The notes: a model not told the origin generated them from the letters alone. Positions 19,799 through 47,829 are shown, counted from the first letter of the stretch. The stretch: 64,000 nucleotides of DNA from Nitrospinaceae bacterium (GCA_965223665.1 OZ245011.1:3712001-3776000); one strand, 5' to 3'. Numbers and translations: made by a program.

Positions 19799-19814
19799 TG
19801 GCAAAGGAATTGCA
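19799..19814 (+). promoter_or_regulatory. Sigma54 (-24/-12) promoter
   Basis: TGGCAA-AGGAA-TTGCA matches TGGCAC-N5-TTGCW with exact spacing, in a 1-kb intergenic region oriented toward 20317. Confidence 0.65.
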
Positions 19815-19825
19815 CCAAATAAATT

Positions 19826-20075: not shown

Positions 20076-20316
20076 TGATTACTTTAAAAACAAATTTATT
20101 GAACTCCAACAAAACGTATTAGTTTTTTAGTCAAACAATATACATTTTAAGTTGGTGTAGCTTTTTTTGGGGAATTAGAGTCTATTGTTTTTGCTTGCCC
20201 AAATTAAGACAAGTTAAACGTATAAATAATATTTTTTAAGCGGTTTAGATTCTGCTGGAAAATTTTGTTGCCTCGAGAATTTTTACAAACAATTTGCGCA
20301 AAAAAAGGATAGAACC

Positions 20317-21645
20317 ATGCAGGCTTATAAAAAAAATTCTAAGTTTTTTTCTACCATTCTTTTTTCCTGTTTCATTGCCTTAAGCTTTTTCCTCCATGGA
20401 TTGGCTCACGCACAAGATACTGAATATTTTGTAAATGTTAAAGATTTTGGCGCTAAAGGAGATGGGATTAACAACGACACTCAAGAAATACAAGCAGCTA
20501 TTAATTCATTATATGTTGATGGAAAAGGAGGTACCGTATATTTACCTCCGGGTAAGTATAGAATAGTAGGAACTGTAGGCTCTGGAGACACATATCAAGG
20601 AAGTACTATAAGGAACGGATTATATTTAAGAGAAAAAACAGGAACTCTTAATCGGCCGACGAATATTATTTCAGGGCTTAATAATCGTATAACCATAAGG
20701 GGAGCAGGTAAATCTACTGTTCTGGTAGGTGATTCAGATAATTTATTTATTATTAGAGTTTCAACTGGCTACGCAACGATTAAAGACCTAACAATAGATG
20801 GGGGGGTCTCGGTAGGGGACTTTACTTCCAAGGTTGTAGGAATCGCCATGGTTCCTGAGAATATGCAAAGTTCTTCTACTCTTACGGATATTAGCTATAA
20901 CGTTGTAGATAATGTACATATTGGCAACACTCAAGAAGGTATTTTAATGAGTTGTGGTCCAACTCGAGGTGAAAGTTTCTGTTATTGGAATTCCTTTTCC
21001 AATGTTTCTTTAAGAGATATGGTTCGAGGAATTTACATGAAAAGTGGTGTAAATGGTTCTCCAAGTATCAATAGGAACATGTTCTCGAATATCAATATGA
21101 ACACTATGAATGTAGGGTTTCATATTGAAAGTGGAGATACCAACACTTGCATGCACTGTACGTTCACAGATATTACGGTTGAAGGTTCCGGTGCGCCCAA
21201 ATCAACTGCCTCGGCTATTGTGATTGATTTTATGGATCAATGGAATCGTTGGGGAAATTCGAGCAATAGATTTTATAACGCCGTATTTGAAGGAAATGAA
21301 CGGGATATTGAAAACGCAGCGGATCGAACTGAGTTTTATGGAATTGAAACGGACCTAGATGGTGGAAAAAACTTATGGTCCCGAAGTCCAATGGCCATGA
21401 TTGGTACCAACGGATTTTTTTCAAAATGGCCCGGGTTATTTGTTGGTTATAAAACTATGGACCCATCTTCAAAGGTGGCTTTAGGTGTTCGATCGGGTTC
21501 TCAGGGATTTCTGCCACCTGTTATGAGCACAACTCAAAGAAATAACATGGGATCTGTTCCGGAGGGGTTGATTATTTATAACAGTTCTACAAAGAAACTA
21601 AATATTTTTTCTAATGGGGCTTGGAGGGCCTTTGTAAACCAATAA
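20317..21645 (+). CDS. Secreted pectate-lyase-3/tailspike-like beta-helix protein (paralog 2)
   Basis: Signal peptide ending AHA; VNVKDFGAKGDGINNDT...GGTVYLPPGKY; C-terminal GFLPPVMSTTQRN...GLIIYN...W. Confidence 0.82.
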   Translation: MQAYKKNSKFFSTILFSCFIALSFFLHGLAHAQDTEYFVNVKDFGAKGDGINNDTQEIQAAINSLYVDGKGGTVYLPPGKYRIVGTVGSGDTYQGSTIRNGLYLREKTGTLNRPTNIISGLNNRITIRGAGKSTVLVGDSDNLFIIRVSTGYATIKDLTIDGGVSVGDFTSKVVGIAMVPENMQSSSTLTDISYNVVDNVHIGNTQEGILMSCGPTRGESFCYWNSFSNVSLRDMVRGIYMKSGVNGSPSINRNMFSNINMNTMNVGFHIESGDTNTCMHCTFTDITVEGSGAPKSTASAIVIDFMDQWNRWGNSSNRFYNAVFEGNERDIENAADRTEFYGIETDLDGGKNLWSRSPMAMIGTNGFFSKWPGLFVGYKTMDPSSKVALGVRSGSQGFLPPVMSTTQRNNMGSVPEGLIIYNSSTKKLNIFSNGAWRAFVNQ

Positions 21646-21716
21646 GTCTAGCCAATTTTTATCTATTTTCTAGGCAAAGAATTCACTTAAGTAATGTTAA
21701 ATAAGAGGAATTAAAA

Positions 21717-24700
21717 ATGTTTAAAATTAAATTGGCAAATTTCCTTAAAGGGTATTTGGTTTTTGGCCTTTTCCTTACGGTACTTTCTCAACAAGCTTTT
21801 GCTGATGTTCAGCAGTTTTTGGACGGTGTTTACCCTGACTCTAGTTACTCCGGAACCAGGGACGCTTATCTCCAGGAAACTCGACCTAATGATGAATTTG
21901 GTACTTTGACTACCTTAAGAGCCGATGGGGAAAGTACCGAAAACGGTCAAACGGGCGAATACGTTTCAGTTATTAAATGGGATGTTTCCAGTATACCTTC
22001 AAATGCAATAATTAATTCAGTATCTATCCGCTTTGATGTTTCTAACTCAAGTTCTGGTACTTACAATGTATATAAAGTAAATAATAGCTGGACAGAAGTT
22101 GAAGTTGATTGGAATGATATTCCTGGAGCTTCTGGTGGTTCTGGGACCACAGTTTTAGGAAGTTTTAATCCAAGTACCACTGGGCTAAGATCTTTTTCAT
22201 TAAATTCCTCGGGAATTCAAGTAGTTCAGGATTGGGTAAGTGGGGCTTCAACAAATGATGGAATAATGATTAGAAGCGGGGGGACCACTGATGGAGTTGT
22301 TTTTGGCTCAAGAGAGGCTTCTCCTTCTGATCGTCCTAGGCTTACAATTGATTTTACCGTCCCTCCACCAGATGAAAATAATATTGTTGAGTTTTTAGAT
22401 GGTGTTCATCCGGATTCAAGTTATAGCGGTACTCAAGATTCCTATTTGAGGGAAACTCAACCTACCACGGAGTTTGGAAATCAAACTATTATAAGTGCAG
22501 ATGGATCAGATACTAGTGGTGGTCAAACGGGAGAATTGGTGGGGATAATAAAATGGGATATTTCTAGTATTCCTTCAAGTGCCGTGGTTAATTCAGTTAG
22601 CCTCCGTTTTGACATTACTAATGTAAGCCCAGGGGCTTATGATTTGTATGCAGTGAATACATCCTGGACAGAAGCGGGTGCAAATTGGAGTAATGTTATA
22701 GGAGCAGGAGGGGCTGGGTCTACTATCTTGGGAAGCTTTACTCCAAGCAGTACAGGACTTCAATCAATAAATTTGAATTCTGCAGGTGTTCAAGTAGTTC
22801 AAGGCTGGGTAAATAACTCCTCCACAAATAATGGATTTCTAATTCGCACAGCTGGTACTAATAATGGGGTTGATTTTTGGTCCAGCGAAGCCTCTGTTTC
22901 AGATAGACCAAAACTGACAATTGATTATGATTCTTCAGGGGGAGGAGGAGGTACTCCAGAAGATTTTACGGTGAATTTTTCCGATGGTACTCACCCCAAT
23001 TCGAGCTATAACGGGACAAGAGATGCCTATATTAGAGAGACGCAACCGAATGACGAATTCGGGACCGAATCTATTTTGCGTGCCGATGGATCCGATACAT
23101 CGGGTGGTCAAACCGGTGAATTGGCAAGTGTTATAAAATGGGATATGTCTTCTATTCCCACAGACTCAGTAGTGACTTCAGTTTCGATCCGATTTGATGT
23201 TTCTAATCAAAGTCCCGGAGCATATAATTTATATCAAGTCAATTTGCCCTGGACGGAAATCGAAATAGATTGGAACGATATTATTGGAACTTCTGGCGGA
23301 GCGGGAACTACCGTATTGGGAAGCTTTACTCCTAGCTCGACAGGACTTAATAACTTTACATTAAATAATTCAGGGATCCAAGTGGTTCAAGGTTGGGTCA
23401 ATAACCCCTCATCTAATAATGGGTTTTTGATTCGGAGTGCAGGGACCAATGATGGGGTGACGTTCTGGTCGCGTGAGGGAAATGTTGCAGACCGACCTCG
23501 GATAACTATTAATTATTCCAGTTCCGGCGGTGGAGGTGGAGGCTCTGGACCTGATACCACTCCACCTGTAGTTACAGCACCCCCTGATGTGACAGCCAAT
23601 TCGACGGGAACCTTAACTCAGGTAAATATTGGTACTGCTACAGCAACGGATAATGTTGAGGTTGCTTCAATTACTAATAATGCTCCTTCAGGAGGATATC
23701 CATTAGGGACGACAGTAGTAACTTGGACTGCCACAGATACTTCTGGTAATACAGGTACTGATACGCAATCCGTTACCGTGATTGATGGTCCTACGTCATC
23801 CACTACTGAGTATTTTGTTAATGTAAAAGATTTTGGCGCTACAGGAAATGGTGTGACCAATGATAGACCTGCCATTCAAGCTGCAATAGATTCTCTTTAT
23901 ACCAATAGCATTGGTGGTGGAACCGTGTATTTCCCACCAGGCACCTATCGTATATTTGCCACCTCTGGCTCTGGTGATATTTATCAGGGTGGAGTCATGA
24001 GAAATGGAATTCTTCTGCGTGATGAGAATGGTTCGAGTGAACATCCTTATGAAAACAATCGAATTAACCGCATTACGTTGCGTGGGGCAGGTAAAAGTTC
24101 TGTTTTAATAGGAAGTGGGGATACAAGAATGTTTATCATTCGTATTGCCACAAGCTATGTGACGATTAAAGACTTATATATTCGTGGAGGTATTGACTAT
24201 AAAACCTTTGGACGCAGGGTAATTGGGATTGGAATTGTTCCTGAAAACATGGGAAGTTCAAGCACCCCAGCCCACTTAAGTTACAATGTGATTGATAACG
24301 TAACTGTTACAGACTCCCAGGAAGGTGTCCTTATGATGTGTGGGCCGGGAGTTAGTGGAAGCCATTGTGGACACAATATGTTTAACAACCTTTCACTAAG
24401 GTTGATGACTCGCGGAATTTATATGGCAAGTGGAGTTCAAGGATCCTTGGGGAATTCGGCAAATGTAATTCGCAATGCGGGATTCAATTTTATGAATGTT
24501 GGATTACATATTGAAAGTGGCGATCATAATACTTGTTTTCACTGTTCCATAAACGATATTGAATTGACAGAAAGTCCTTATAATGGAGGGGTTCCCAAAC
24601 AAACTGCTACCTCAGTTGTAATTGAGGATCTTGACAAATGGAACCTTTGGGCAAATGTTAATAATCGTATTTATAATCTACCAAGCGAACATAATTCTCG

Positions 24701-25049
24701 GGATATTGAAAATGAGAGTTCCACCACTGAAATTTATGGAGCTTCTGGAGTTTCACTTGGAAAAACTAAATGGACTGAACCTCCTCAATTTATGACGAGT
24801 ACCAAAGGAAGTTATGTGAACAATAGTAGTGTAATTATTGGAGACTCTGGATTTGGTACTCCCCATCCTAATGTCATATTGGGGGTTTATTCAACAAGTA
24901 AAGGATTTCTCCCTCCAGGGTTATTTGCTACCCAAATAAGTGGAATGGGGACTTCCTCATTGCCTGAGGGATTAGTTATTTTTAATCGGAGTACAGGGAA
25001 TTTGCAAGTGTTTGATGGAAATCAATGGAGAGTTCAAGCACTTGAGTAA
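21717..25049 (+). CDS. Secreted multidomain protein: 3x DNRLRE-like, HYR, tailspike-like beta-helix (paralog 3)
   Basis: Signal peptide ending AFA; three ~195-aa repeats (DAYLQETRP...IKWDVSSIP...RPRLTI); HYR domain DTTPPVVTAP...TWTATDTSGN; VNVKDFGATGNG beta-helix; GFLPP...FDGNQW tail. Confidence 0.85.
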   Translation: MFKIKLANFLKGYLVFGLFLTVLSQQAFADVQQFLDGVYPDSSYSGTRDAYLQETRPNDEFGTLTTLRADGESTENGQTGEYVSVIKWDVSSIPSNAIINSVSIRFDVSNSSSGTYNVYKVNNSWTEVEVDWNDIPGASGGSGTTVLGSFNPSTTGLRSFSLNSSGIQVVQDWVSGASTNDGIMIRSGGTTDGVVFGSREASPSDRPRLTIDFTVPPPDENNIVEFLDGVHPDSSYSGTQDSYLRETQPTTEFGNQTIISADGSDTSGGQTGELVGIIKWDISSIPSSAVVNSVSLRFDITNVSPGAYDLYAVNTSWTEAGANWSNVIGAGGAGSTILGSFTPSSTGLQSINLNSAGVQVVQGWVNNSSTNNGFLIRTAGTNNGVDFWSSEASVSDRPKLTIDYDSSGGGGGTPEDFTVNFSDGTHPNSSYNGTRDAYIRETQPNDEFGTESILRADGSDTSGGQTGELASVIKWDMSSIPTDSVVTSVSIRFDVSNQSPGAYNLYQVNLPWTEIEIDWNDIIGTSGGAGTTVLGSFTPSSTGLNNFTLNNSGIQVVQGWVNNPSSNNGFLIRSAGTNDGVTFWSREGNVADRPRITINYSSSGGGGGGSGPDTTPPVVTAPPDVTANSTGTLTQVNIGTATATDNVEVASITNNAPSGGYPLGTTVVTWTATDTSGNTGTDTQSVTVIDGPTSSTTEYFVNVKDFGATGNGVTNDRPAIQAAIDSLYTNSIGGGTVYFPPGTYRIFATSGSGDIYQGGVMRNGILLRDENGSSEHPYENNRINRITLRGAGKSSVLIGSGDTRMFIIRIATSYVTIKDLYIRGGIDYKTFGRRVIGIGIVPENMGSSSTPAHLSYNVIDNVTVTDSQEGVLMMCGPGVSGSHCGHNMFNNLSLRLMTRGIYMASGVQGSLGNSANVIRNAGFNFMNVGLHIESGDHNTCFHCSINDIELTESPYNGGVPKQTATSVVIEDLDKWNLWANVNNRIYNLPSEHNSRDIENESSTTEIYGASGVSLGKTKWTEPPQFMTSTKGSYVNNSSVIIGDSGFGTPHPNVILGVYSTSKGFLPPGLFATQISGMGTSSLPEGLVIFNRSTGNLQVFDGNQWRVQALE
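21813..23516 (+). repeat. Three tandem intragenic DNRLRE-like domain repeats
   Basis: Units begin near 21813, 22389 and 22974 (FLDGVYPDSSYSGTRD / FLDGVHPDSSYSGTQD / FSDGTHPNSSYNGTRD); diverged at DNA level. Confidence 0.85.
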
Positions 25050-25078
25050 AAGTTTGAATTTTAAATTGATAAGACGTT

Positions 25079-25120
25079 AAAAATGCTTAATCTATTAATA
25101 AAGGATTAAGCATTTTTTTT
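25079..25120 (+). terminator. Intrinsic terminator
   Basis: AAAAATGCTTAATC-N11-GATTAAGCATTTTT plus T-run after 25049. Confidence 0.75.
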
Positions 25121-25161
25121 ATGGTTTTTGGTTTCAATTAATTTAAATTAGACAATCGCCA

Positions 25162-25902
25162 TTGGTCAAAAGTATGGGAAAATTAATAGGTTCATTATTC
25201 AGAGTTTTTTGCGTTTTGTTCATGGTTGTTTGCCTTCTTGGTAAGGTGAGTTTGGGTCATGCGAATGCGTCAAGAGTCTTTAGTGGTATTAAGAAAGAGC
25301 AAGGCAAAGTAAAAATAAATGTTAAAGATATTCCCTTAATGCAGGTTTTGGAAATGGTTAACTACCATAGTGGAATTAACTTCCAAGGGTATTCTGAGCA
25401 TTTTGACAAAAAAGTTACTGTGCAGATAGATGCTAATACATGGCCAGAAGCGATAAGAGAATTATTAATTGACTTTGGGAAAATTGAGATTGGTGATGGA
25501 AAAAATCTAAAGTCTGTTTGGTTATTGGGGGGAAATAATAGTGGAGGACCAGTTTGGGTTAACAGTTCAGGCTATGGAGAAAAAGGTGTAAAATCCCAAA
25601 ACTTAACTTCAAAAAACAACAAAAACTCCATAAAATCTGCCTCACGTATCCCCCAAAGTTCATTAAATTCGCCACAATTATTTAGTAAACTAAAACAAAT
25701 AAGTAAACTTTCTTATAATGATCCCATTCCAGAGACTTTAATAGGAGATAAAGATCTAATGCCTTTTTTTAGGCAATTTGGAATTAGGTCGGCAAGTGAT
25801 TTAAAAAATAAAAAACAGGCCCATCGTCTAAAAAAAATGGCTAAACGACGGGTTCAAGCGATGGAAGAAATATCAAGATCTCAAAAATCTAAGGTAAATT
25901 AG
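25162..25902 (+). CDS. Exported protein with STN/secretin-N-like domain
   Basis: Signal peptide; VKINVKDIPLMQVLEMVNYHSGINF pattern; basic C-terminus; no secretin barrel. Confidence 0.55.
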   Translation: MVKSMGKLIGSLFRVFCVLFMVVCLLGKVSLGHANASRVFSGIKKEQGKVKINVKDIPLMQVLEMVNYHSGINFQGYSEHFDKKVTVQIDANTWPEAIRELLIDFGKIEIGDGKNLKSVWLLGGNNSGGPVWVNSSGYGEKGVKSQNLTSKNNKNSIKSASRIPQSSLNSPQLFSKLKQISKLSYNDPIPETLIGDKDLMPFFRQFGIRSASDLKNKKQAHRLKKMAKRRVQAMEEISRSQKSKVN

Positions 25903-26233
25903 ATTTTTTTTGAAGAAAATGTTTAGTTTTTATTTTTTAAATTTGTGGGGTAAAATTAGAGGCCCAATTGGGGAATAATCATTTGGAAAAGCCTAAAAAA
26001 TTTGAACTTTTTTACCCAATTAGTGTTTTTAAATCCTCATTCTCTTTCTTTCGATAATTCAAATGATTTAACCTTTTAATGGTTTGGCGTGGTATTTATA
26101 TTTGATTTTAAAGGCTTTTCCTTTGTGATTCACCTTTATAATTCTTGCTGAAAAAGATATAATAAATAGATTTACCAAATTGTAAATTTAAATCAGCCTT
26201 TTTTGGGGCTATTTCTATTGGGGGAACTCAACA

Positions 26234-28423
26234 GTGAAGTCGAATGAAATGAGTCACAGTGAAATCGGGTTCAATGATTTAATAAAAATGATTTTTAAGA
26301 GGAAAGTGACTCTGGGTCTATTTATTTTGATTCCTATGATTTTCTCGGTAGTTTACTCCTATACCATGACCCCAATCTACTCGGCCCAAGCACAGGTTCT
26401 TATAGAGGGAAATTCCAATCAAACGGCTACTCTAGAGCAAATTTTAAGAAAGCAAACTCGAGAAGTTAATTTTCTTGAAACTCAATACGTCTTATTAAAA
26501 AGCCGCGCTTTAATAAAAAGCGTTATCCAAAAACTTGAGTTGGAAGATAGTGACGAATTTAAGCCAAAAGAAAAGTTGATTTCTTTTGAACCAATAAAAG
26601 ATGCCCTGAGATGGGTTATCAATTTGATTATTTCAAAGGAACCGGAAGAGATAAGTGATGAAAGTTCCACGGACCCTTATACAAAACTTATAAATACTTT
26701 TTTGAAGCGGTTGACCATTTCCCCAGTACGTAAAACACAAGTGGTTAATGTAGCTTACCAAGGTTATTCTCCGGAACTGGCAGCTAAAATTGTTAATACC
26801 CTTTGTGAAACTTTTATTGAAAAGAATATTGAATTAAAAAGCACCATAGACCAGGGGACCGGGGAATGGTTAAGAAAAAGGGTAAAAGAGGTTAACGAAG
26901 AATTAAAAGAATCTGAGCTTGCTTTGCAAAAATATAAAGAAGAACATGAAGCTCTGGAACTTGAAGAAAAACGAGGCTTTGCAAATCAAAAATTAGGTAG
27001 AATTTTAAGAGATATTTCTGTCGCCAAGTCGGAGCGATTACGTTGGGAAGCCATTAGAAATCAGGTTTTAAAAATGAAGCGCGATCCTAAGGAAATGCTT
27101 CAGTCTTTACCTGATGAGCTGAAGTCAGAAAACGTTGTTCGTCTAAGAAAAGAGTATATTGCTTATCAACAAGAATTAACAGTTCTTTCTAAATCATATG
27201 GTTCTTCTCACCCTACCATTATCACTCTAAAAGCAAAAATTGATGCCATCGAGAAAAGAATTCCTGATGAGATGAACCGAGTATTACGCAGTGTGAATAA
27301 TGAATACGAAGCGGCTAGAGAAAAAGAGAATATTATGCAGTCGGCTTTGGATGATATGAAGAAAAGGGCTATCAAGGCAGACAAGGAAACAATTGAATAC
27401 ACAAGTTTGAAGCATGAAGTGGAAGCTAATAAAAAACTATTTGATTTGTTATTGAATAGAATGAAGCAAATTAATGTTAGGTCACAAATTAGCGAAACAA
27501 ATATTAGAGTTGTTGATACTGCGGAAGTACCTTTAATTCCAGTAAAACCGAATAAAGTTTTGAACTTATTGATTGCTATTGCCCTTGGATTTTTAGGTGG
27601 GTTTTTATTTGTTTCTTATAAAGAGCTTCAAGATAAAACCGTGAAATCTGAGAATCAGTTAGAAAACTCATTGCCTTTCCCAGTATTAGGAACTGTGAGT
27701 ACCCTAAGTGGAAAAAAGGATAAACGATTTCCAATTTTAAATATAAATTCACGGACAGGTTCGGAGTTCCGGGATATGGTAACCAACCTCCGTTGGATTC
27801 TTGCTGAACCACACAGAGTAATTATGGTGACTAGTACCTTGTGTGGAGAAGGGAAGGCAACTGTAGCAGCTAATTTAGCTGTGGGAATTGCTCAGGTTGG
27901 GAAAAGAGTTTTATTGGTGGATGCAGATTTAAGGCAACCTAAATTGAATGCATTCTTTAAAACTAAGCCGTCGCCGGGATTAGCCGATCTACTTCAGGAT
28001 GTTCAGTCCATCCAAAATGTGGGTCAAGAAACTAAATTCAAAGGTCTCTGGGTTCTTCCTACAGGCACTGTTGGCCCGAACTCATATATTTTTCAGGATT
28101 TATTCAATCCAGAGAAGTTTAAAAAAGTAATTTCTTTTGTAAGGCAAAAATTTGATGTTGTATTACTTGTGACTTCGCCAGCTAAAAAATTCTCGGATGC
28201 TTCATTTATTGAGAAATTTTGTGATGGAATTATTTATGTCGTCGAAGCCGGTAAGAATGACCCCAAAACCATTGAACGGGCTATTGAACAGTTATCAAAA
28301 GCTCCGGCATTATCTGCTGCAACAGATTTTCTGAATGGAAACGGAGTCCGGGATGATGATGGCCATGGAATCAATGGTGAATCCCTTCGTCGAATTGGTC
28401 TAGTACTTAATAAAGTTGATTAA
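26234..28423 (+). CDS. wzc: Wzc/GumC polysaccharide co-polymerase with degenerate BY-kinase domain
   Basis: TPIYSAQAQVLIE, YGSSHP, VVDTAEVPLIPVKP, two TM helices, VLLVDADLRQP. Walker A is GEGKAT, Walker B is VVLLVTSP, and there is no Tyr tail. Confidence 0.9.
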   Translation: MKSNEMSHSEIGFNDLIKMIFKRKVTLGLFILIPMIFSVVYSYTMTPIYSAQAQVLIEGNSNQTATLEQILRKQTREVNFLETQYVLLKSRALIKSVIQKLELEDSDEFKPKEKLISFEPIKDALRWVINLIISKEPEEISDESSTDPYTKLINTFLKRLTISPVRKTQVVNVAYQGYSPELAAKIVNTLCETFIEKNIELKSTIDQGTGEWLRKRVKEVNEELKESELALQKYKEEHEALELEEKRGFANQKLGRILRDISVAKSERLRWEAIRNQVLKMKRDPKEMLQSLPDELKSENVVRLRKEYIAYQQELTVLSKSYGSSHPTIITLKAKIDAIEKRIPDEMNRVLRSVNNEYEAAREKENIMQSALDDMKKRAIKADKETIEYTSLKHEVEANKKLFDLLLNRMKQINVRSQISETNIRVVDTAEVPLIPVKPNKVLNLLIAIALGFLGGFLFVSYKELQDKTVKSENQLENSLPFPVLGTVSTLSGKKDKRFPILNINSRTGSEFRDMVTNLRWILAEPHRVIMVTSTLCGEGKATVAANLAVGIAQVGKRVLLVDADLRQPKLNAFFKTKPSPGLADLLQDVQSIQNVGQETKFKGLWVLPTGTVGPNSYIFQDLFNPEKFKKVISFVRQKFDVVLLVTSPAKKFSDASFIEKFCDGIIYVVEAGKNDPKTIERAIEQLSKAPALSAATDFLNGNGVRDDDGHGINGESLRRIGLVLNKVD

Positions 28424-28456
28424 TATAAATAGTAATAGAGAGTAAAACGCTAAATT

Positions 28457-29485
28457 ATGAAATTACTGGTTACTGGTACTGCCGGTTTTGTAGGATATTT
28501 TACAGCAAAAAATCTTTTAAATTCGGGGCACGAAATTGTAGGGGTTGATAACATAAATGATTATTATGATATCAGTCTTAAATACGACCGTTTAAATAAT
28601 TTAAAAGAGTATTCTAATTTTATTTTTTATAAAAAGGACTTATCAGATTTAGATTCGGTTAATGAAATATTCAAAAAAGAGAAACCTCAGAGAGTTATTC
28701 ATCTTGCTGCACAACCGGGTGTACGCTATTCGTTAAAATATCCAGAAAAATATATTCAAAGCAACATTGTTGCTTTTATGAATTTGCTTGAGGCTTGCCG
28801 CAACTTTGGAATTGAGCATTTGGCATACGCTTCTTCCAGTTCTGTTTATGGGTTGAACGGTACTTATCCTCTTTCTGTGAAAGATAATGTGGACCACCCT
28901 GTTTCCTTATATGCGGCGACCAAAAAAAGCAATGAATTAATGGCGCATACATACTCTCATCTCTTTAATATTCCAACCACAGGATTACGTTTTTTTACAG
29001 TTTACGGACCGATGGGGCGACCCGACATGGCGTACTTCTCTTTTGCCAAAAGAATTATTGAAGGGCAACCCATAGAAGTATTTAATGAAGGTAAAATGTT
29101 TAGGGATTTTACTTATATTGACGATATTGTGGAGGGAGTTATTCGAGTTGCTATGAAAGTTCCTGAGTCTAACCCTGCTTGGGATTCTAAAAACCCTGAT
29201 CCAAGCTCATCGCTGGCCCCTTACCGTGTCTATAATATAGGATGTAACTCTCCAGTAAATTTAATGGATTTTATCCGGGAAATAGAAAAGAATCTTGGTA
29301 AACAAGCGAATATGAAATTTTTGCCGATGCAGCCAGGTGATGTTGTTAAAACTCATGCAGATGTTGATGATTTGGTTCGTGATTTAGATTATAAACCCAA
29401 AATAGATTACCGGACCGGAGTTAGAAAGTTTATTGAATGGTTTGTTGAGTACTGGGAATCAGAAAAAAGCAATGTTCAGGCCTGA
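28457..29485 (+). CDS. UDP-glucuronate 4-epimerase (CapI/WbnF-like)
   Basis: TGTAGFVG, HLAAQPGVRYS, YAATKK, GLRFFTVYGPMGRPDMA. Confidence 0.92.
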   Translation: MKLLVTGTAGFVGYFTAKNLLNSGHEIVGVDNINDYYDISLKYDRLNNLKEYSNFIFYKKDLSDLDSVNEIFKKEKPQRVIHLAAQPGVRYSLKYPEKYIQSNIVAFMNLLEACRNFGIEHLAYASSSSVYGLNGTYPLSVKDNVDHPVSLYAATKKSNELMAHTYSHLFNIPTTGLRFFTVYGPMGRPDMAYFSFAKRIIEGQPIEVFNEGKMFRDFTYIDDIVEGVIRVAMKVPESNPAWDSKNPDPSSSLAPYRVYNIGCNSPVNLMDFIREIEKNLGKQANMKFLPMQPGDVVKTHADVDDLVRDLDYKPKIDYRTGVRKFIEWFVEYWESEKSNVQA

Positions 29486-29546
29486 TTATTTAGCGCCCCC
29501 TCCCAAAAAGTTTCCTTTAAAAATATATTTGAGTAATTAAATAATA

Positions 29547-30947: not shown

Positions 30948-30964
30948 TTGTTAAATGATTTTAA

Positions 30965-32089: not shown

Positions 32090-32136
32090 TTAAATGCAAA
32101 ATTATTAATAAATCACAAAAGAAATAACATGGTGTC

Positions 32137-33405: not shown

Positions 33406-33474
33406 TATGAAAGTTACTGTTGGATATTTAGAAATGTTTAGTTTTTCTCAATGAAGTAACTTAAGAACACTCTT

Positions 33475-38259: not shown

Positions 38260-38504
38260 GTAGAAGTAAAATCTAATTTATTCTCTCGGTCTAATTCCGT
38301 TCTTCCTCACACGCTAAAAACCTGTTATAATATTGTTTTTAAAAAGGTTGTGCTGTTTGAGTAAAAGAGGTTGTTAAATCTTTTTGTCATCATAATCTAT
38401 TTTTTCATTGGTTCCTTTTGGTTTTTCTAAAAAGGAGATAGGTTATTTGTATTTAAATTAATTAATATTGGTTTTATCCTTCCATTGATTATTTAAGGAA
38501 AACT

Positions 38505-39188
38505 ATGAACAAGGCCCAAACATTCCAAGATTTTTTAGTTAACCAAAGCGCCGAAATTTCTGTATGGGGATTTTTAGTAAATATCATTTTGGCCATTATT
38601 TTTTCATTTATATTGGCGCAAATGTATATTCGGTTTGGAAATGTACTTTCAAATCGAAAAATGTTCTCAAAGAACTTAATTTTTATATCGATGACTACTA
38701 TGCTGGTCATCACTATTGTGAAATCTTCTTTGGCGCTTTCTTTAGGTCTGGTGGGTGCTCTTTCAATTGTTCGTTTTCGCGCTGCTATAAAAGAACCTGA
38801 AGAATTGGCTTATTTGTTTTTGGCGATTGCAATTGGACTTGGTTTTGGAGCGAATCAGGGACTTATCACTATTTTGGCTTTTATAATTATATTGGGAGTA
38901 ATAATTTGGCTTAATTATTCTCATTCTGTTGAAGAAAGCCAAAACCTTCATTTAAGCATATTCTGTGATACCCAACCCAAACTGGAATTAAACCAATTGG
39001 TTTCTGAATTAAAAAAGCATTGTAATAAAGTAGTGTTGAAACGGTTTGATGAAGATAAGGACACAATAAACTCCACTTTCTTGGTGGAGTTTAAAGGTGC
39101 GGATGACTTAGAAGAAGCAAAAAAATCTCTCCAAAAAATAAATGAAACTGTAAAAATTACCTATTTGGATTCCCGCGGAGTTTTTTAA
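38505..39188 (+). CDS. DUF4956 family membrane protein
   Basis: KSSLALSLGLVGALSIVRFRAAIKEPEELAYLF signature; C-terminal soluble domain. Confidence 0.9.
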   Translation: MNKAQTFQDFLVNQSAEISVWGFLVNIILAIIFSFILAQMYIRFGNVLSNRKMFSKNLIFISMTTMLVITIVKSSLALSLGLVGALSIVRFRAAIKEPEELAYLFLAIAIGLGFGANQGLITILAFIIILGVIIWLNYSHSVEESQNLHLSIFCDTQPKLELNQLVSELKKHCNKVVLKRFDEDKDTINSTFLVEFKGADDLEEAKKSLQKINETVKITYLDSRGVF

Positions 39189-41861: not shown

Positions 41862-41884
41862 GGGATAAGTTTACCTGAGTTCTT

Positions 41885-42571
41885 ATGGATGGAATTGAGT
41901 CTTATAGATATGAGAGAAAGTTTTTGGTGACGGCTCTTTCTTATGAAGAGTTAAATCAAAAAATCCTCCTCCATCCTGCCATATTTCAGCCGATTTATCA
42001 TAAACGTTACGTAAACAATATTTACTTTGACAGCCCAGATTTAACCAGTTTTGTTGACAATGTTGAAGGAGTTGGAAAAAGAACAAAATTTAGGATTAGA
42101 TGGTATGGATCTTTATCAGGGAAAATTCAAAAGCCAGTTTTGGAAATTAAAAATAAAACTGGATTTCTATGTAGTAAAGAATTGTATCCTATAGAGGGTT
42201 TTACCATAGACGAAGAATTTTCAATTAAAAAGGTTATGGACAGTGTAACGCGTTCGAAAATACCTAAAAGTGTTGTTGTTCAATTGGGTCTATTAGAGCC
42301 CGTTTTAATTAATAGATATTTAAGAAACTATTTTTTATCCATTGATGGCGATTTTAGAATTACTATCGACAGGGAATTAAGTTTTTTCCCCTTTGATTTA
42401 TCTTTTCCAAGGTTATTGGATCACGAAATGAAAGAATCGTTTAGTATTCTAGAACTAAAATATGCTTTAGAAAAGGACGATGAAGCTCAGAGAATTTCAA
42501 ATGCCTTTGATTTTCGCCTTACAAAAAGTTCCAAATACGTAAATGGCGTTTTTCGTTTAATGGCGGAATAA
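41885..42571 (+). CDS. VTC-domain (polyphosphate polymerase / TTM fold) protein
   Basis: RYERKF, NIYFD, KFRIRWY, LEIK, RITID, LELKY, SKY. Confidence 0.9.
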   Translation: MDGIESYRYERKFLVTALSYEELNQKILLHPAIFQPIYHKRYVNNIYFDSPDLTSFVDNVEGVGKRTKFRIRWYGSLSGKIQKPVLEIKNKTGFLCSKELYPIEGFTIDEEFSIKKVMDSVTRSKIPKSVVVQLGLLEPVLINRYLRNYFLSIDGDFRITIDRELSFFPFDLSFPRLLDHEMKESFSILELKYALEKDDEAQRISNAFDFRLTKSSKYVNGVFRLMAE

Positions 42572-42624
42572 AAAAACTGTAATTAAAAAGCTTAATACTG
42601 GTTATGACGAATTAAATTAAAGTT

Positions 42625-43542
42625 TTAAGCGCCTTGAAAAAAGTTGTATGTTTTTGTCAAACCTTTTTCTAGAGAATAAGTAGGTTTCCAACCAAAGGAT
42701 GAGTTAAGCTTTCTAAAATCGATCACACTTCTACGTTGTTCCCCTTTTCTAGGCGATTCATGGGAAGCTTCAATGTTTTTCCCAGAAATTTTTGTCAGGT
42801 ATTTACTCAGACTGTTGACAGTCGTTTCTTGTGCAGTACCTACATTAAAAACTCCCTGACAATCCTCTGAGAGCGCTACATTGTTTGCTTGTACCACATC
42901 GAAAACTGAAACAAAATCTCGAGTTTGCTCACCATCTCCATAAATAATGGGAATTTGATTTCCTATTAATTTTTGACAAAAAATTGCAACTACACCCGCT
43001 TCACCGTGAGGATCTTGACGAGGGCCATATACATTGCTATATCTCAATACAGCTGTATTCAAATTGTATGTTTGATTATAAAAACGCATATAATTTTCAA
43101 CGCTAAACTTGGCAATTCCATAAGGGCTGAGGGGCCGACAAGGATGTTTTTCACAGGCAGGAAAATATTCCTGTTCTCCGTAAATAGCTCCTCCAGTGGA
43201 AGCAAAAACAAATTTTTTCACTTTGTATTCGTTCGCTAGTTTTAATATTTTCAAACTTCCAAGTATATTGATCTCGGCATCAAAGCTAGGATCAGAAACT
43301 GATTGGGTGACTGAAATTTGTGCGGCGTGATGGTTAATCTTATCAATTTTCTCATTTTTGAAAATGGTTTCGACTTCGGGATCCATCAAATCCATTTCAT
43401 AAAATTTTGCATCGGGATGAATATTACTTTTTTTTCCTGAAGAAAGATTATCAAGAACGATTACCCGATAACCTTTAGAGATATAAGACTCTACAATATG
43501 TGAACCAATGAAACCGGCCCCCCCGGTAACTAAAATGTTCAT
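42625..43542 (-). CDS. NAD-dependent epimerase (UDP-glucose 4-epimerase-like)
   Basis: MNILVTGGAGFIGSH (start 43542), ASTGGAIYG, YGIAK, NVYGPRQDPHGEAGVV. Confidence 0.92.
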   Translation of the reverse strand: MNILVTGGAGFIGSHIVESYISKGYRVIVLDNLSSGKKSNIHPDAKFYEMDLMDPEVETIFKNEKIDKINHHAAQISVTQSVSDPSFDAEINILGSLKILKLANEYKVKKFVFASTGGAIYGEQEYFPACEKHPCRPLSPYGIAKFSVENYMRFYNQTYNLNTAVLRYSNVYGPRQDPHGEAGVVAIFCQKLIGNQIPIIYGDGEQTRDFVSVFDVVQANNVALSEDCQGVFNVGTAQETTVNSLSKYLTKISGKNIEASHESPRKGEQRRSVIDFRKLNSSFGWKPTYSLEKGLTKTYNFFQGA

Positions 43543-43579
43543 ATATATTCCTTGAGATAACTTTGAGTTACTAAATGAT

Positions 43580-44992
43580 TTATCTACCCTTACCAAAAAC
43601 CATGAGATGTGCTGTTTTTAATAGTATAGCGGCATCAAGTTTAAAAGAGTAGTGTCGAATGTAATAGAGATCATATTCGAACTTTTTGATCGCATCATTA
43701 AAGTCAAACCCATAGTTAAAGTTTACTTGCGACCAACCCGTAATCCCGGGTTTTACAAGATGTCTGAAGCGATAACAAGGAAATTGGCTTTCATAAGCTT
43801 GAGTCAATTGGTGTTGCTCAGGCCTAGGTCCGATAATACTCATATCTCCCTTCAAAACATTCCAAATTTGAGGAATTTCATCCAAATGGGAGGCCCGTAA
43901 CCATTTCCCTAACTTGGTAATTCGGTCATCATTCGAATTGGTGCAAGCATCTCCGTGGTTTTCTCTTTGGACCATGGTTCTATATTTATAGACTTGGAAG
44001 GGTTGATTGTTTTTCCCAGTTCTTGCCTGCTTAAAAATTGCTGGACCCTTTCCTTCTAGTTTAATTAACAAGGGAATAATCACAAACAATGGACTCATTA
44101 GAATTAAACTTAAAGAAGCAATCGTTATGTCAATTAAGCGTTTAATATTTTCAAAAATGGGTTGTCGGGCAAATTGAAAACCAGGACCTAATAATAATTG
44201 AGGATGCATTATTGATGCAGGTACTCTTTTGAAATATTCTTCATAAAACTTGTCTACACTTAGTATTGGAACTTGACCAAAATGACATTCAATTAATTTC
44301 TCAACCATTTCTTTAGGCATTCCTCTTCGATCAGCGGCTAAAACAACCGCATCATGCATACCGTTTAAATTTTCTAATTGCCAAAGAGGATCTCCTTCTA
44401 CAATAGGAGAATCGTTGTCATTTTGTGAAAGTCGTTCTCCAACTTTTTCTAAATTGATTTCAACAAAACGTAATCCCTGTTTCAATTTTGATTCTGTGCA
44501 ATCTTGATAAATAGTTTGCGCTACAGGACCTGAACCTATAATTAGTAGTTTTCTTCCATCCAGAAACTTATTGGCCCACCTTGATAAAGATCTTCTATAA
44601 AGAAGAGAAAGGGGTAAAAAAGTTAAAAAGACTAATGGCAAAATCCCACGTCCCAGGTTATTTTCGGGTTGCATTGCAAAAATATAAACAACCGAAACCG
44701 TTAAAATTGCAGCGGATACTAAAGCAATCACATGTTCGCTGGCATATTCAAGACTCAATAAATCTCTTTTAGGGGAGTAGCCGTCAATAATATATAGAGC
44801 TAAAAAAGTAAATCCAAATGGGATTAACCATTGAATTCCCATAGCTGTAGAAATATCTAGGTTGTCAAAACGAAATAGATTGAAAACAAGAAAGAGTAAC
44901 CAAAGGCTCAGTGCATCTAATAGTAAAAAAGTGGTTGCAATTCCTTTTTTGAAGGCCATATGTTTTTTAGATTGTATAGTTGTCGTCATCAT
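43580..44992 (-). CDS. Priming undecaprenyl-phosphate sugar phosphotransferase (WcaJ/WbaP-like)
   Basis: N-terminal TMs; KRLIDI, YKYRTM, LDEIPQ, GDMSIIGPRPE, KPGITGWSQ. Confidence 0.93.
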   Translation of the reverse strand: MMTTTIQSKKHMAFKKGIATTFLLLDALSLWLLFLVFNLFRFDNLDISTAMGIQWLIPFGFTFLALYIIDGYSPKRDLLSLEYASEHVIALVSAAILTVSVVYIFAMQPENNLGRGILPLVFLTFLPLSLLYRRSLSRWANKFLDGRKLLIIGSGPVAQTIYQDCTESKLKQGLRFVEINLEKVGERLSQNDNDSPIVEGDPLWQLENLNGMHDAVVLAADRRGMPKEMVEKLIECHFGQVPILSVDKFYEEYFKRVPASIMHPQLLLGPGFQFARQPIFENIKRLIDITIASLSLILMSPLFVIIPLLIKLEGKGPAIFKQARTGKNNQPFQVYKYRTMVQRENHGDACTNSNDDRITKLGKWLRASHLDEIPQIWNVLKGDMSIIGPRPEQHQLTQAYESQFPCYRFRHLVKPGITGWSQVNFNYGFDFNDAIKKFEYDLYYIRHYSFKLDAAILLKTAHLMVFGKGR

Positions 44993-45081
44993 TATTTATA
45001 CAGATTTACATAAAATATCAATTTATAGATTTACATTCCAAATGCTGTATGAAAATAATAAAAACTAAGCCTCCGCTTATC

Positions 45082-45101
45082 AATACCCCTGTAGGGGTAT
45101 T
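45082..45101. promoter_or_regulatory. GC-cored palindrome, possible CsoR/RcnR-family operator
   Basis: AATACCCCT-GT-AGGGGTATT about 90 bp upstream of the priming transferase. Confidence 0.4.
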
Positions 45102-45383
45102 TTTATTGGGGTTGGATTTGGGAAATTTGAGATTGAGATAAGTTTAAGAATTTTATGGTGAGTTTAATATGCCCCATCCCCTTGTAAACCATTCACTTTA
45201 AAAGCGCTATTTTATTAAAAGGTATTGTAAATTGTCAATAGTTTAGATGGGTCAGGAAGGGAATAGATAGATAAAAGAAAAATTCTTGATGAAAATGTAA
45301 CAGAATCTAAATTCTTTTGTGATCAAATTTTAGAGGAAAATGTAAATTTAAATGAAGGATAAAAGTTTAAATTTTTTGTCCCA

Positions 45384-46301
45384 CTAAAAGAAACTTCGTG
45401 GGACATGGATAATATCTCCTGGTTGCAATAGTAGATTTTTAGATAAATCTCCATCAAAAATTACTTTGTCCAATTCCACCTGAATCTTTTGAATGGCCTT
45501 ACTACCGGAACTGGATTTTCTATAAACCTGCGTTGATCTGGGGCGTGCCACATCTGTTAAACCTTCTGCCATTAAAATAGCATCCAAAACCGTCATTCCC
45601 TCATGAAAGGTGATAACTTGTGGCCTCTGTACCTCTCCCATGATATTGATACGCTTATCAAAATTATCAGCAATGTAAACCAGGTCGTCCTGTTGAAGCC
45701 AAATATTTTGGCTAAAATCTCCATTATTCACTAAATCATGAATATTAAGTTCCAGTTTCTTTCCATTTCTAAGGAGATAGGAATTATGCAAATCAGCTTG
45801 CTCAGTAAAGCCTTTTCCAAGTGAAAACAAGTGCAATAAAGAAATAGGGCGGTTGACTTTATAAGTATCGGGGGCATTCACCTGTCCCCAAATTGAAATT
45901 TTAATACTGTTAATTTCCTTAACGATAACCGTAATACTTGCATCGGTAATATAGTCCCTGAGGCGATCAGCCATCTTTTCTTTCAATTGGTCAGGAGTCA
46001 GACCTTTAGCCTTGACATCTCCAATGAGAGGGAAAGAAATGAAACCATCAGGCCTGACAGGCATTTCAGTGGTTAATTCCTTATTTCCCCATACAGCAAT
46101 TTGGAGTACATCTTCAGGGCCTAAAAGAAAATCCCCTTTAGCTGAACCTTTTCCAGGTGCACCTGAGTCGCTTATACCGCCATTATTCATTTCTTTTGGA
46201 TTGTCTGAAATGTCAAAATCGAAAGGGGCGGCGAAACTAATGGATTGAATTAAAAAAAGGGTCATCAAGGTAACCAAGGGAATCAATAATCTATCTCGCA
46301 T
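45384..46301 (-). CDS. Short periplasmic OPX/Wza-like polysaccharide export protein
   Basis: LGPEDVLQIAVW, VRPDGFISFPLIG, two SLBB domains; ends PGDIIHVPRSFF; non-lipoprotein signal peptide. Confidence 0.9.
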   Translation of the reverse strand: MRDRLLIPLVTLMTLFLIQSISFAAPFDFDISDNPKEMNNGGISDSGAPGKGSAKGDFLLGPEDVLQIAVWGNKELTTEMPVRPDGFISFPLIGDVKAKGLTPDQLKEKMADRLRDYITDASITVIVKEINSIKISIWGQVNAPDTYKVNRPISLLHLFSLGKGFTEQADLHNSYLLRNGKKLELNIHDLVNNGDFSQNIWLQQDDLVYIADNFDKRINIMGEVQRPQVITFHEGMTVLDAILMAEGLTDVARPRSTQVYRKSSSGSKAIQKIQVELDKVIFDGDLSKNLLLQPGDIIHVPRSFF

Positions 46302-46443
46302 AAGGTACTCCTTAGAGGCTTTTGAAAATAACGGCCAAAGTTTTGAAATTGTTTGGAAAGAATTTTTAAAATGGAGCTTATTATATGATATCGCGAAAAA
46401 CGATATTTCTCTACAGAAATTTTAATACAAAGGGGTGACTACT

Positions 46444-47829
46444 TTAAAAAGTGGCAATGACACTGAGGCCAACTAAATTATTGCTGTATTCACGATCTAC
46501 AAAGTTGGAATCATTAGTGCGGAATTGATATCTCAATTGGGCTTGTAACCATTCCTGAATATGGTAAGCAAGGTTAAGGGAAAATAAGAAAAAGTTATCC
46601 TCTCTGATTCTTTGTAATCCGGGCGGAGGAGGTGTAGGGTTTGAGTCTCCCGCAAAATCCTGAACAGCAACATCATAATCTAGGCGGTTATATTGTGCTC
46701 TTCCAGTAATAGTCCATTTTGTTAAAATTTGTTGAGTCACAGAAAACCCTACAACATGTCTAAGAAAGGATTGGTTCACATTGAAGGTAGCATCAAGAAC
46801 GTCTCTTGTAACAAAAAATCTATAACTCGTTCTTTCTTTGGGACGGTAAGTAACGTTGAAAAAGAATACGAAATCGGTGCGATTCTGACTCAGTTGTGAA
46901 AGTACTTGCTGAAAAATCATGGATTGAACGCCCAAGCCTAAGTTAACCAAAATTAAAGGAGTCGCTTGCCATTTCCAGGTACCGTAAAACGTATGTGTAT
47001 TGGAATGAGCGTTATTTGGAGAGAGTTCATCATACCTTATCTTTTGATAGCGATACTGAATTCCAAAAGCTGTTTGCGGAGTCCATTGAAATAGAAACTG
47101 AGGATTAATAATGTAAATAATATCGTCTTGTGTGTCTGCAGGAAAGCTAAAATCTTCTCGCTGAATACTTCCATCCAAAAGAAATTGAAATCGCTTGGTG
47201 AGATTATAAATAAAATTTAAATAGCCCCTGTAATCAAACCTTTCAATCCGTGGATTTAAGTTGGCTGCAATTTCAGGATTTCGCAGTTGTCGGGTATCTA
47301 AATAACTTCCCCCTATTTTTAACTCAGAACGCCCACCTTTTCCACCAAACAATAAATACGAGTCAATTTCATGAATAAAAGTATCTTGATCATTGAGGTC
47401 TACAAAGTCCTCATAGCGGCCGTTATATTGAAAATGAAAGCCAAATACTTCTCCAGTTTCACGGGGTAAATCTATTGCAAGAGTAGGAATATAAGCAAAA
47501 ATAGTATCCTCAATTTTACCCTCTGAATTCCCATTCGGAAATGCTCGATCGGCAAGTAGGAAAACATTATTATTATAAACAACTTCCATACCAAAGCTGG
47601 GAGTAATAACCCACCGCCCCAAGTGTGTATTTTTTAATGCCTGCGCCTGGGTAACCAAAGTACACAAACCTAGAAGCAAAAAAAGGAAAATCCTGGGAAT
47701 CCAGTTTTGAGTTAATTGGGTGTAATATTTTGAAAAGGTTGGATCAACTTGTCGCATTTTCTTTTTAAATGATTCCATTTCTTTGAAAAGCGTAGTATTT
47801 TGAAAAATCAGCGTTAATTCCATTTCCAC
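46444..47829 (-). CDS. Outer-membrane beta-barrel associated with polysaccharide export
   Basis: Signal peptide ending AQA, YNNNVF motif, alternating amphipathic strands, terminal Phe; adjacent to OPX. True start may be 47757. Confidence 0.82.
   Translation of the reverse strand: MEMELTLIFQNTTLFKEMESFKKKMRQVDPTFSKYYTQLTQNWIPRIFLFLLLGLCTLVTQAQALKNTHLGRWVITPSFGMEVVYNNNVFLLADRAFPNGNSEGKIEDTIFAYIPTLAIDLPRETGEVFGFHFQYNGRYEDFVDLNDQDTFIHEIDSYLLFGGKGGRSELKIGGSYLDTRQLRNPEIAANLNPRIERFDYRGYLNFIYNLTKRFQFLLDGSIQREDFSFPADTQDDIIYIINPQFLFQWTPQTAFGIQYRYQKIRYDELSPNNAHSNTHTFYGTWKWQATPLILVNLGLGVQSMIFQQVLSQLSQNRTDFVFFFNVTYRPKERTSYRFFVTRDVLDATFNVNQSFLRHVVGFSVTQQILTKWTITGRAQYNRLDYDVAVQDFAGDSNPTPPPPGLQRIREDNFFLFSLNLAYHIQEWLQAQLRYQFRTNDSNFVDREYSNNLVGLSVIATF

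Follow-up and report, generated by a model that had tools for sequence, protein, structure and literature searches.

Does the exopolysaccharide gene cluster described here encode one integrated system, or does it bring together parts that are separable? The cluster occupies positions 20317 to 47829 of a 64,000-nucleotide stretch of DNA (hereafter, the window) from a Nitrospinaceae bacterium (GCA_965223665.1 OZ245011.1:3712001-3776000), the genome of which (G000) measures 4.35 Mb, is 98.6% complete, and contains the window as G000:C1:3712001-3776000. A preliminary description of the DNA had joined all of the parts in a single proposal, in which the Wzc protein of the locus has lost tyrosine phospho-cycling, the exported polymer or its associated proteins are phosphorylated outside the cytoplasm with the help of a trio of DUF4956, CotH, and VTC proteins, and secreted beta-helix "spikes" process the product. 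Pfam and NCBIfam scans of the window open reading frames (ORFs) recovered every gene that had been named (Table 1; all positions are window positions unless a contig or locus is given). Moreover, the entire locus was syntenic in G001, the single available congener. We consider it likely that the locus is an exopolysaccharide locus of a known type, with a pseudokinase PCP, glycan-active beta-helix enzymes, and a separate trio cassette; integration of all the parts is not supported.

The kinase domain of the window Wzc matched TIGR01007 (129.6 bits; cutoff, 108.05) and E. coli Wzc structures (E 1e-35), and the protein is the only bacterial tyrosine kinase (BY-kinase) homolog above cutoff in the genome. 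Alignment with the E. coli structures and with order-level relatives indicated that Walker A reads GEGK541-A542, with the lysine kept and alanine replacing serine or threonine, that Walker A' is intact (VLLVDADLR, DxD kept), and that Walker B reads VVLLV646TSP, with valine in place of aspartate. The stop codon falls 3 residues past the last strand, and there are no tyrosines in the tail. The same motifs were surveyed in the aligned columns of the 120 best kinase-domain matches from a library of 5.8 billion proteins. Serine or threonine followed the Walker A lysine in 118/120 of these matches and the Walker B aspartate was present in 118/120, while all 118 proteins with intact motifs had at least one tail tyrosine and 111 of the 118 had two or more. 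The combination of alanine, valine, and a 3-residue tyrosine-less tail was found only in the window Wzc and in that of the congener. An assembly truncation was considered as the source of the tyrosine-less C terminus and rejected because the identical stop codon is present in G001. In P-loop NTPases, the Walker A serine or threonine and the Walker B aspartate coordinate Mg; as both Mg-coordinating positions and all acceptor tyrosines are lost, autophosphorylation is presumably lost as well. The sole BY-kinase homolog of the genome thus carries three independent lesions, in agreement with the earlier claim that tyrosine phospho-cycling has been lost at this locus. We conclude that the window Wzc is, judged by its sequence, convincingly kinase dead.

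The kinase-like domain is under strong purifying selection and shows no decay. It is 98% identical in G000 and G001, with a dN/dS of approximately 0.004 that is rough because dS is saturated, and it is the best-conserved segment of the locus; flanking housekeeping genes are 82 to 87% identical and glycan-specific genes 61 to 77%. Because the domain appears to be non-phosphorylating and yet is strongly selected, its role is most likely that of a scaffold, perhaps a nucleotide-binding one, since retention of the Walker A lysine and of Walker A' would still allow nucleotide to bind. Most Wzc homologs of order-level relatives have an intact Walker B and tyrosine-bearing tails. A subclade found in G038, G040, and G056 has lysine replacing the Walker B aspartate, and a tail-less homolog is encoded in G042. 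The lysine-bearing proteins of G038, G056, and G040 (loci L019, L025, and L041, respectively) are 880 to 916 amino acids long and have an extra C-terminal hydrophobic domain behind a short tyrosine-bearing linker; a 752-amino-acid Wzc at L034 has the same lysine without the extra hydrophobic domain. The subclade may represent a second, independent route to a noncanonical BY-kinase domain.

BY pseudokinases have been described in EcpK of M. xanthus and HfsB of Caulobacter, and a phosphorylation-independent mode has been proposed for EcpK/EpsV and HfsB/HfsA (PMC12004946). PslE is a fused PCP with a kinase-like domain that has neither the catalytic lysine nor the tyrosine cluster, and its OPX partner, PslD, is without the C-terminal helix, according to PMC13434223. 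The window Wzc falls under the BY pseudokinase definition as worded in PMC12004946. Like EcpK/EpsV, HfsB/HfsA, and PslE, it combines a BY-kinase fold lacking catalytic residues and a tyrosine tail with a Wzx/Wzy pathway, and like PslE, it carries the kinase-like domain and the PCP in one polypeptide and is accompanied by a short OPX. Unlike the window Wzc, EcpK and HfsB are stand-alone proteins. Unlike all three proteins, the window Wzc is degenerate only in part and recently, in that the Walker A lysine and Walker A' are kept and the lesions do not extend beyond one genus, the order-level relatives of which retain intact motifs and tyrosine tails. The locus is a clean natural example of a Wzc that is early in conversion to a pseudokinase, with three genus-confined lesions in its best-conserved domain, and it supports the recent view that a BY-kinase domain can be a phosphorylation-free scaffold.

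The remaining export genes were as the preliminary description had them. A MurJ-type flippase gene is present in the locus, and the housekeeping MurJ is encoded elsewhere (C1:662166; 432.5 bits to TIGR01695). A short OPX gene and a separate beta-barrel gene are adjacent. The OPX protein consists of Poly_export and two SLBB domains that end at residue 300 of 305, and it aligned to Wza residues 64 to 275 of 359; the barrel scored below the cutoffs of TIGR03014 and TIGR03016. A short OPX with a separate barrel has been published as the composite OPX/beta-barrel translocon, the OPX being of class 3 (PMC9601211 and PMC12819527). Like EpsY/EpsX of M. xanthus, the window OPX ends after the second SLBB domain and adjoins a BBP2-type barrel gene. 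Unlike in that reference case, the barrel, a putative partner of the OPX, falls below the EpsL and TIGR03016 cutoffs. In relatives, the barrel gene directly adjoins the wzc homolog.

Consistent with the reported absence of Wzb, no low-molecular-weight protein tyrosine phosphatase (LMW-PTP) gene was found in the window, PHP-type phosphatases not having been searched. Three genes of the LMW-PTP family are located elsewhere in the genome, two encoding ArsC-type arsenate reductases and one a generic member that lies approximately 1.28 Mb from the locus and scored 56 bits against a Wzb model with a cutoff of 243. An XrtA/PEP-CTERM locus in the strict sense was considered and rejected, as the two exosortase genes are far downstream, at distances of approximately 380 and 465 kb; of the models for such loci, the OPX passed TIGR03027, and the chain-length and TyrKin models scored below their cutoffs. 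No Pel-specific families and no DUF4832 were found among the 33 ORFs scanned between 917 and 52649, and the family 4 glycosyltransferases (GT4s) of the window scored below the PelF cutoff. We conclude that the export part belongs to published kinds and that the locus most likely serves Wzx/Wzy-dependent exopolysaccharide production, a type already on record.

Two secreted beta-helix proteins are encoded at the upstream end of the locus. PDB sequence matches for the pair were to mannuronan C5-epimerases, glucanases (GH55), pectin lyases, and carrageenases, with AlgE4/AlgE6, GH55, and pectin lyase matched by the 442-amino-acid protein; these matches do not extend beyond the N-terminal part of the beta-helix. 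No tailspike sequence was among the PDB matches of either protein, and the phage-type tailspike reading was rejected on that ground, the matches being to glycan enzymes. In Foldseek, tailspikes came up for the C-terminal domain of the CotH protein alone, and there at the level of a generic beta-helix fold. The term "spike-like" is therefore apt for the generic beta-helix fold and misplaced for the sequences, which resemble glycan-active enzymes. There are 7 scattered copies of the family in the window genome (3 in the window) and 5 in G001, and the family was found in 2/61 related genomes, that is, in this genus only. We read the secreted beta-helix proteins as probable polymer-modifying or polymer-degrading enzymes, of a kind common in exopolysaccharide loci.

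The trio is present and collinear at 38505 to 42571, as had been noted. The DUF4956 protein has five predicted transmembrane helices and a C-terminal beta-alpha-beta-beta-alpha-beta domain (AF2 model; pLDDT 77). By sequence, nothing in the PDB matched it below E 0.46, and Foldseek gave no match at E <= 0.001, the C-terminal domain returning weak and generic ferredoxin-like, ACT, PII, and MgtC-C similarities. A complex prediction for DUF4956 with VTC scored 0.00, which is evidence neither way. The VTC protein has no transmembrane segment and no signal by hydropathy, and its profile matches yeast Vtc4/Vtc2. Its K12 and R70/R72 align with Vtc4 "TTKY" and "RLRWYG," the basic residues of which we take to be tunnel residues. 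Like the eukaryotic VTC complex (Vtc4/Vtc3/Vtc1), the window protein is a tunnel domain with conserved basic residues that is paired, by gene order, with a membrane component. Unlike in that complex, it has neither an SPX domain nor a Vtc1-type transmembrane domain, and DUF4956 is unrelated by sequence to the membrane part of the complex and has no fold match to it.

The CotH protein has an N-terminal anchor preceded by KKRK, and thus, by the positive-inside rule, the bulk of the CotH/beta-helix protein should face outward. Its AF2 model (pLDDT 86.9) matched the B. cereus CotH kinase 5JDA in Foldseek (E 1e-13; TMt 0.70), and its C-terminal beta-helix resembled GH87 and GH28 enzymes, tailspikes, AlgE4, and AlgG; every relative examined likewise joins its CotH domain to a beta-helix of the glycan-enzyme type. 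The CotH of Bacillus has protein kinase activity, with D228 as the catalytic and D251 as the metal-binding aspartate in B. subtilis (PMC7821199). Profile alignment to 5JD9 placed His302 at the position of D228 and D326 at that of D251. In a set of 51 sequences spread over many phyla, histidine occupies position 302 in 50; position 296, 6 residues upstream, is aspartate in 46 and glutamate in 5; position 308 is asparagine in 34; and position 326 is aspartate in 42 and glutamate in 9. Replacement of the catalytic aspartate by histidine is therefore likely but not settled, because loop lengths differ and the basis is a profile alignment rather than a residue-level superposition. Like the Bacillus kinase (5JD9/5JDA), the window CotH has the same fold and, by the profile alignment, keeps the metal-binding aspartate and the catalytic-loop asparagine. 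Unlike it, the window protein has a histidine that aligns with the catalytic aspartate, is membrane anchored and predicted to face outward, and is fused to a beta-helix. Three further CotH-family paralogs are encoded in the genome (C1:4074051-4077715 and C1:1260450-1261550), none beside a VTC gene; one of the three sits in a 1722-amino-acid ORF.

Relatives of the fused CotH/beta-helix protein were found in at least 583 stretches of a species-genome collection that spans bacteria and archaea, with carriers that include Planctomycetota, Bacteroidota, Myxococcota, Cyanobacteria, CPR bacteria, Methanosarcina, and DPANN archaea. Seventy-five of these loci were kept, many being cut by contig ends; DUF4956 was present in 58, VTC in 54, and all three genes in 51, and tight DUF4956-CotH-VTC collinearity was seen in 32 of the 75. 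Moreover, DUF4956 and VTC matched the same 3 of 14 control genomes (B. thetaiotaomicron, C. glutamicum, and M. acetivorans), and all 3 hold CotH. Surroundings of the trio vary: in G050 it lies among SUF/MoaA genes, in G054 beside aconitase, and in G010 next to a Wzx/Wzy-type gene set and phosphate uptake genes (PstS and a Na/Pi cotransporter). The families of the two nearest ORFs on each side were scanned at 30 loci (119 ORFs), a set without L060 and L062 and without loci whose flanks were short or whose trios were incomplete. The most frequent were GT1-type glycosyltransferases (9), Acyl_transf_3 (5), GT2 (4), and GDSL (4), followed by Polysacc_synt_2 (3), epimerase (3), and Wzy_C (2). Since the trio tends to adjoin glycan genes, it may plausibly carry out phosphate chemistry on surface glycans outside the cytoplasm.

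The same three families have been reported near other polysaccharide genes. CotH, a polyphosphate polymerase, and DUF4956 form an accessory set contiguous with Gram-positive pel loci (PMC7112168), and in S. intermedius, aggregation that depends on Pel is reduced when either the CotH gene or the gene for the membrane protein is deleted; the authors of that study report that they saw no such arrangement away from Pel loci (PMC12345266). The trio families also appear in the gene table of C. perfringens NELoc-2 (PMC2879425). Our literature search found no mechanism for the trio and no trio in a Wzx/Wzy locus. Like the Gram-positive Pel accessory set (Whitfield et al. 2020; S. intermedius 2025), the window trio comprises the three families next to exopolysaccharide genes with an exported CotH. 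Unlike that set, it is found in a diderm host and in a Wzx/Wzy-dependent locus, without a pel synthase locus or DUF4832; the CotH fusion partner is a beta-helix here and an FN3 domain in the Pel set; and cassettes of the window type are widespread away from polysaccharide export genes, unlike the Pel set in print. We conclude that DUF4956-CotH/beta-helix-VTC is an autonomous and widespread cassette, known but uncharacterized, that occurs here in a new context, and its known settings thereby come to include a diderm Wzx/Wzy locus in addition to the Pel loci of Gram-positive bacteria.

The preliminary description called for phylogenetic profiling and named independent assortment of the components as the outcome contrary to its proposal. 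Among 61 related genomes, VTC was found in 11 and a full-length Wzc homolog (E < 1e-100) in 12. The two occurred together in five (G000, G001, G025, G034, and G056) and were linked only in G000 and G001. Six genomes, including the 65%-complete G037, had VTC without a close Wzc homolog, and seven had Wzc without VTC. Degeneration of Wzc did not track the trio: a degenerate Wzc was found without VTC in G038, G040, and G042 and with the trio on another contig in G056, and in G025 and G034 an intact Wzc coexists with a trio that is not linked to it. The wzc loci of relatives contained barrel, PGT (polyprenyl glycosylphosphotransferase), or glycosyltransferase genes, not all of them in each, and no trio. 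Homologs of Wzc, OPX, barrel, MurJ-like, CapK-like, and beta-helix proteins were found within 10 kb of 0/73 trio loci outside the family, in a tblastn search with the window's own proteins that can miss distant OPX/PCP types and is not a family search, and over flanks that miss a more distant Wzc, as in congener locus L060. Within the same 10 kb of the 73 loci, PGT was found at 1, Wzy at 1, GT4 at 18, and epimerase at 11. Because the profiling and the neighbor counts show the components occurring separately, we conclude that they largely assort independently and that pseudokinase, trio, and "spikes" are linked as a set, among the genomes compared, only in G000 and G001. The statement that the combination had not been described was only partly right, as BY pseudokinases, the composite OPX/barrel translocon, and the trio beside Pel loci are all published.

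In the reading that we favor, that of an exopolysaccharide locus with a separate cassette, the PGT would prime undecaprenyl phosphate, and the four GT4s, the two epimerases, and the adenylate-forming enzyme would build a decorated repeat unit. The MurJ-family paralog would flip the repeat unit, Wzy would polymerize it, and the PCP-2a octamer, the assembly of which would be governed by the non-phosphorylating kinase-like domain, would hand the chain to the short class 3 OPX and its separate barrel. Secreted beta-helix enzymes may then trim, epimerize, remodel, or release the polymer. The trio would be an add-on cassette that has come to lie inside the locus in this genus. Cytoplasmic VTC would make or handle polyphosphate at the membrane protein DUF4956, VTC and DUF4956 would supply the CotH/beta-helix enzyme, most plausibly with polyphosphate or a phosphoryl donor, and the outward-facing enzyme would carry out phosphate chemistry on a surface glycan. 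What the analysis shows is gene content, motif states, selection, folds, and distribution; we infer the scaffold role, the topology, any export of polyphosphate, and any phosphorylation of the polymer, as well as every biochemical step of the trio.

Some observations weigh against keeping the parts separate. In addition to the saturated dS and to the limits of the 10-kb flanks and of tblastn given above, the evidence for motif loss and selection comes from two genomes, as G001 is the only congener. In this genus the trio lies where the two convergent halves of the locus meet, and it falls in the slowly evolving class of genes (identity to G001 is 94% for DUF4956, 87% for CotH, and 89% for VTC); since it evolves slowly, like the "machinery" genes, it may have been functionally recruited. 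Moreover, both trio copies of the genus adjoin CapK-like and beta-helix genes. The shared neighbors are the sole observation that speaks for a local association, and they do so less strongly because the CapK-like (5) and beta-helix (7) families are expanded and concentrated in the island. One way in which recruitment could matter is if the exported polymer is phosphorylated in transit, the cassette having been drawn into the phosphorylation-independent Wzc pathway as a device for polyphosphate-fueled phosphate transfer outside the cytoplasm, where there is no ATP. VTC would then polymerize polyphosphate at the inner membrane face, DUF4956 would conduct it across, and the near-invariant CotH histidine would pass phosphate to a glycan held by the beta-helix. 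We regard this scenario as unlikely, and if it is true that the cassette moves phosphate chemistry across the membrane, the process would be new to the envelope.

The integrated system of the preliminary description, in which phosphorylation of the polymer or of proteins by the trio replaces the lost tyrosine regulation of Wzc and the beta-helix "spikes" process the product, draws on the adjacency and synteny of all parts in G000 and G001, the position of the trio between the locus halves, the CapK-like and beta-helix neighbors of both trio copies, and the absence of Wzb from the window. The linkage is nonetheless that of 2/61 genomes in a single genus, degenerate Wzc and trio each occur without the other, and tblastn found no Wzc, OPX, barrel, CapK-like, or beta-helix homolog within 10 kb of any of the 73 trio loci of other lineages. 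Moreover, archaea and other lineages carry the trio without nearby export machinery, the beta-helix family is genus restricted with 7 scattered copies, and pseudokinase PCPs work without the trio in M. xanthus, C. crescentus, and P. aeruginosa, as described in PMC12004946 and PMC13434223. The integrated system is therefore very improbable. That the window Wzc is still an active kinase, acting on other proteins or on internal tyrosines by way of the Walker A lysine and Walker A', we hold to be very improbable: K541 and the Walker A' DxD are intact, selection on the domain is strong, and the genome has one generic LMW-PTP gene, but the Walker A serine or threonine and the Walker B aspartate, each kept in 118/120 relatives, are both lost and there are zero C-terminal acceptor tyrosines.

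Alternatively, the trio could be unrelated to polysaccharide, being a polyphosphate or phosphate-homeostasis module or an envelope-protein kinase module that lies in a variable surface island by chance or by hitchhiking. The surroundings of the trio in G050 and G054 and the neighboring PstS and Na/Pi cotransporter in G010 are consistent with such a module, as are the deletion of one copy from the window genome with its neighbors kept (see below) and the protein kinase activity of Bacillus CotH (PMC7821199). Yet a glycan-enzyme-like beta-helix invariably accompanies the CotH domain in the same protein, glycan families lead the list of flanking genes across phyla, a GT4 lies within 10 kb in 18/73 loci, and the Pel phenotype published for S. 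intermedius indicates a link to glycan (PMC12345266). We consider a trio without any tie to polysaccharide rather unlikely, while giving it some weight.

The history of a second trio copy was reconstructed by comparison with G001, which has a second, divergent trio that is 28 to 43% identical to the first. The second trio lies between a beta-helix gene and msrAB with two CapK-like genes flanking (L050 9652-13757). Both sides of the region aligned to the window at 81 to 82% identity by blastn, and 3,915 bp of G001 (L050 9754-13668) were absent between window positions 4890 and 4894. At the junction, the first 32 codons of the second DUF4956 gene abut the last 32 codons of the second VTC gene, and the remnants are 91% identical (tblastn). 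The remnants and the missing 3,915 bp together indicate that the window lineage lost its second trio copy by deletion.

Table 1. Features of the locus and of the island upstream of it (window positions)
Feature	Position	Strand	Evidence or remark
CapK-like gene	1711-3096		Upstream island extension
Beta-helix protein	3203-4720		Upstream island extension
Deletion scar of second DUF4956-CotH-VTC cassette	4792-4982	-	blastn, tblastn
msrAB	5288-6424	-	Upstream island extension
Second upstream CapK-like gene	7104-8531		Upstream island extension
Secreted beta-helix protein, 442 amino acids; polysaccharide epimerase/lyase/hydrolase type	20317-21645	+	Pect-lyase_RHGA_epim, 53.8 bits; signal peptide
Secreted multidomain protein, 1110 amino acids: 3 CBM96/DNRLRE, disaggregatase repeat, HYR, C-terminal beta-helix	21717-25049	+	Pfam, NCBIfam, signal peptide
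246-amino-acid protein with N-terminal hydrophobic anchor/signal and Lys-rich C terminus	25162-25902	+	Hydropathy; no Pfam/NCBIfam match
PCP-2a (Wzc-like) with degenerate BY-kinase domain	26234-28423	+	Pfam, NCBIfam, alignments
NAD-dependent sugar epimerase/dehydratase	28457-29485	+	Pfam
MurJ-family flippase paralog, putative Wzx role	29547-30947	+	TIGR01695, 234.7 bits (cutoff, 235.55)
GT4 glycosyltransferase	30965-32089	+	Pfam, NCBIfam
Wzy-type polymerase (Wzy_C)	32137-33405	+	Pfam
Two GT4 glycosyltransferases	33475-34614 and 34611-35804	+	Pfam, NCBIfam
Adenylate-forming enzyme, PaaK/F390-synthetase ("CapK") superfamily	35801-37144	+	NCBIfam matches, all below cutoffs
GT4 glycosyltransferase (fourth)	37141-38259	+	Pfam, NCBIfam
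DUF4956 membrane protein	38505-39188	+	Pfam, 61.1 bits
Membrane-anchored CotH kinase-fold domain fused to beta-helix, 890 amino acids	39189-41861	+	Pfam CotH, 47.7 bits (cutoff, 23.8)
Stand-alone VTC protein, triphosphate-tunnel/polyphosphate-polymerase-like, 228 amino acids	41885-42571	+	Pfam VTC, 101.5 bits
NAD-dependent sugar epimerase/dehydratase	42625-43596	-	Pfam
Priming PGT	43580-44992	-	TIGR03025, 314.2 bits (cutoff, 295.55)
Short OPX, 305 amino acids, without C-terminal outer-membrane helix	45384-46301	-	TIGR03027, 206.7 bits (cutoff, 180)
BBP2_2/EpsL-like outer-membrane beta-barrel	46444-47829	-	Pfam, 39.7 bits (cutoff, 23.7)

The locus is made of two convergent halves, with the plus strand coding through VTC and the minus strand coding for the second epimerase, the PGT, the OPX, and the barrel. 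Promoter and terminator scans of 19300 to 30000 and 36500 to 48200 gave counts that were not above those of shuffled sequences and hence no operon information, and alignment of the gap between the fourth GT4 gene and the DUF4956 gene with G001 showed it to be unconserved, with no element seen. In a search of sequencing runs, four DNA runs from one study and no RNA runs were listed for this DNA. The 246-amino-acid protein encoded directly upstream of wzc is 71% identical in G001, the only relative in which it is conserved, and has one weak paralog on contig C4 of the window genome. The earlier label "CapK ligase" was correct in that an adenylate-forming enzyme is present and loose in that the protein falls below every curated NCBIfam cutoff; of the 5 CapK-like paralogs in the genome, 3 lie within the window.

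The surface-glycan island extends upstream over 917 to 8531, where a methyltransferase gene is also present. Signaling genes flank the island on either side. Upstream, on the minus strand at 11537 to 13519, is an adenylate/guanylate cyclase gene with TPR and HD-GYP-type (HD_5) domains, and downstream, on the minus strand at 50466 to 52649, are genes for a GAF histidine kinase and an HDOD protein. The flanking signaling genes are possible regulators of the locus.

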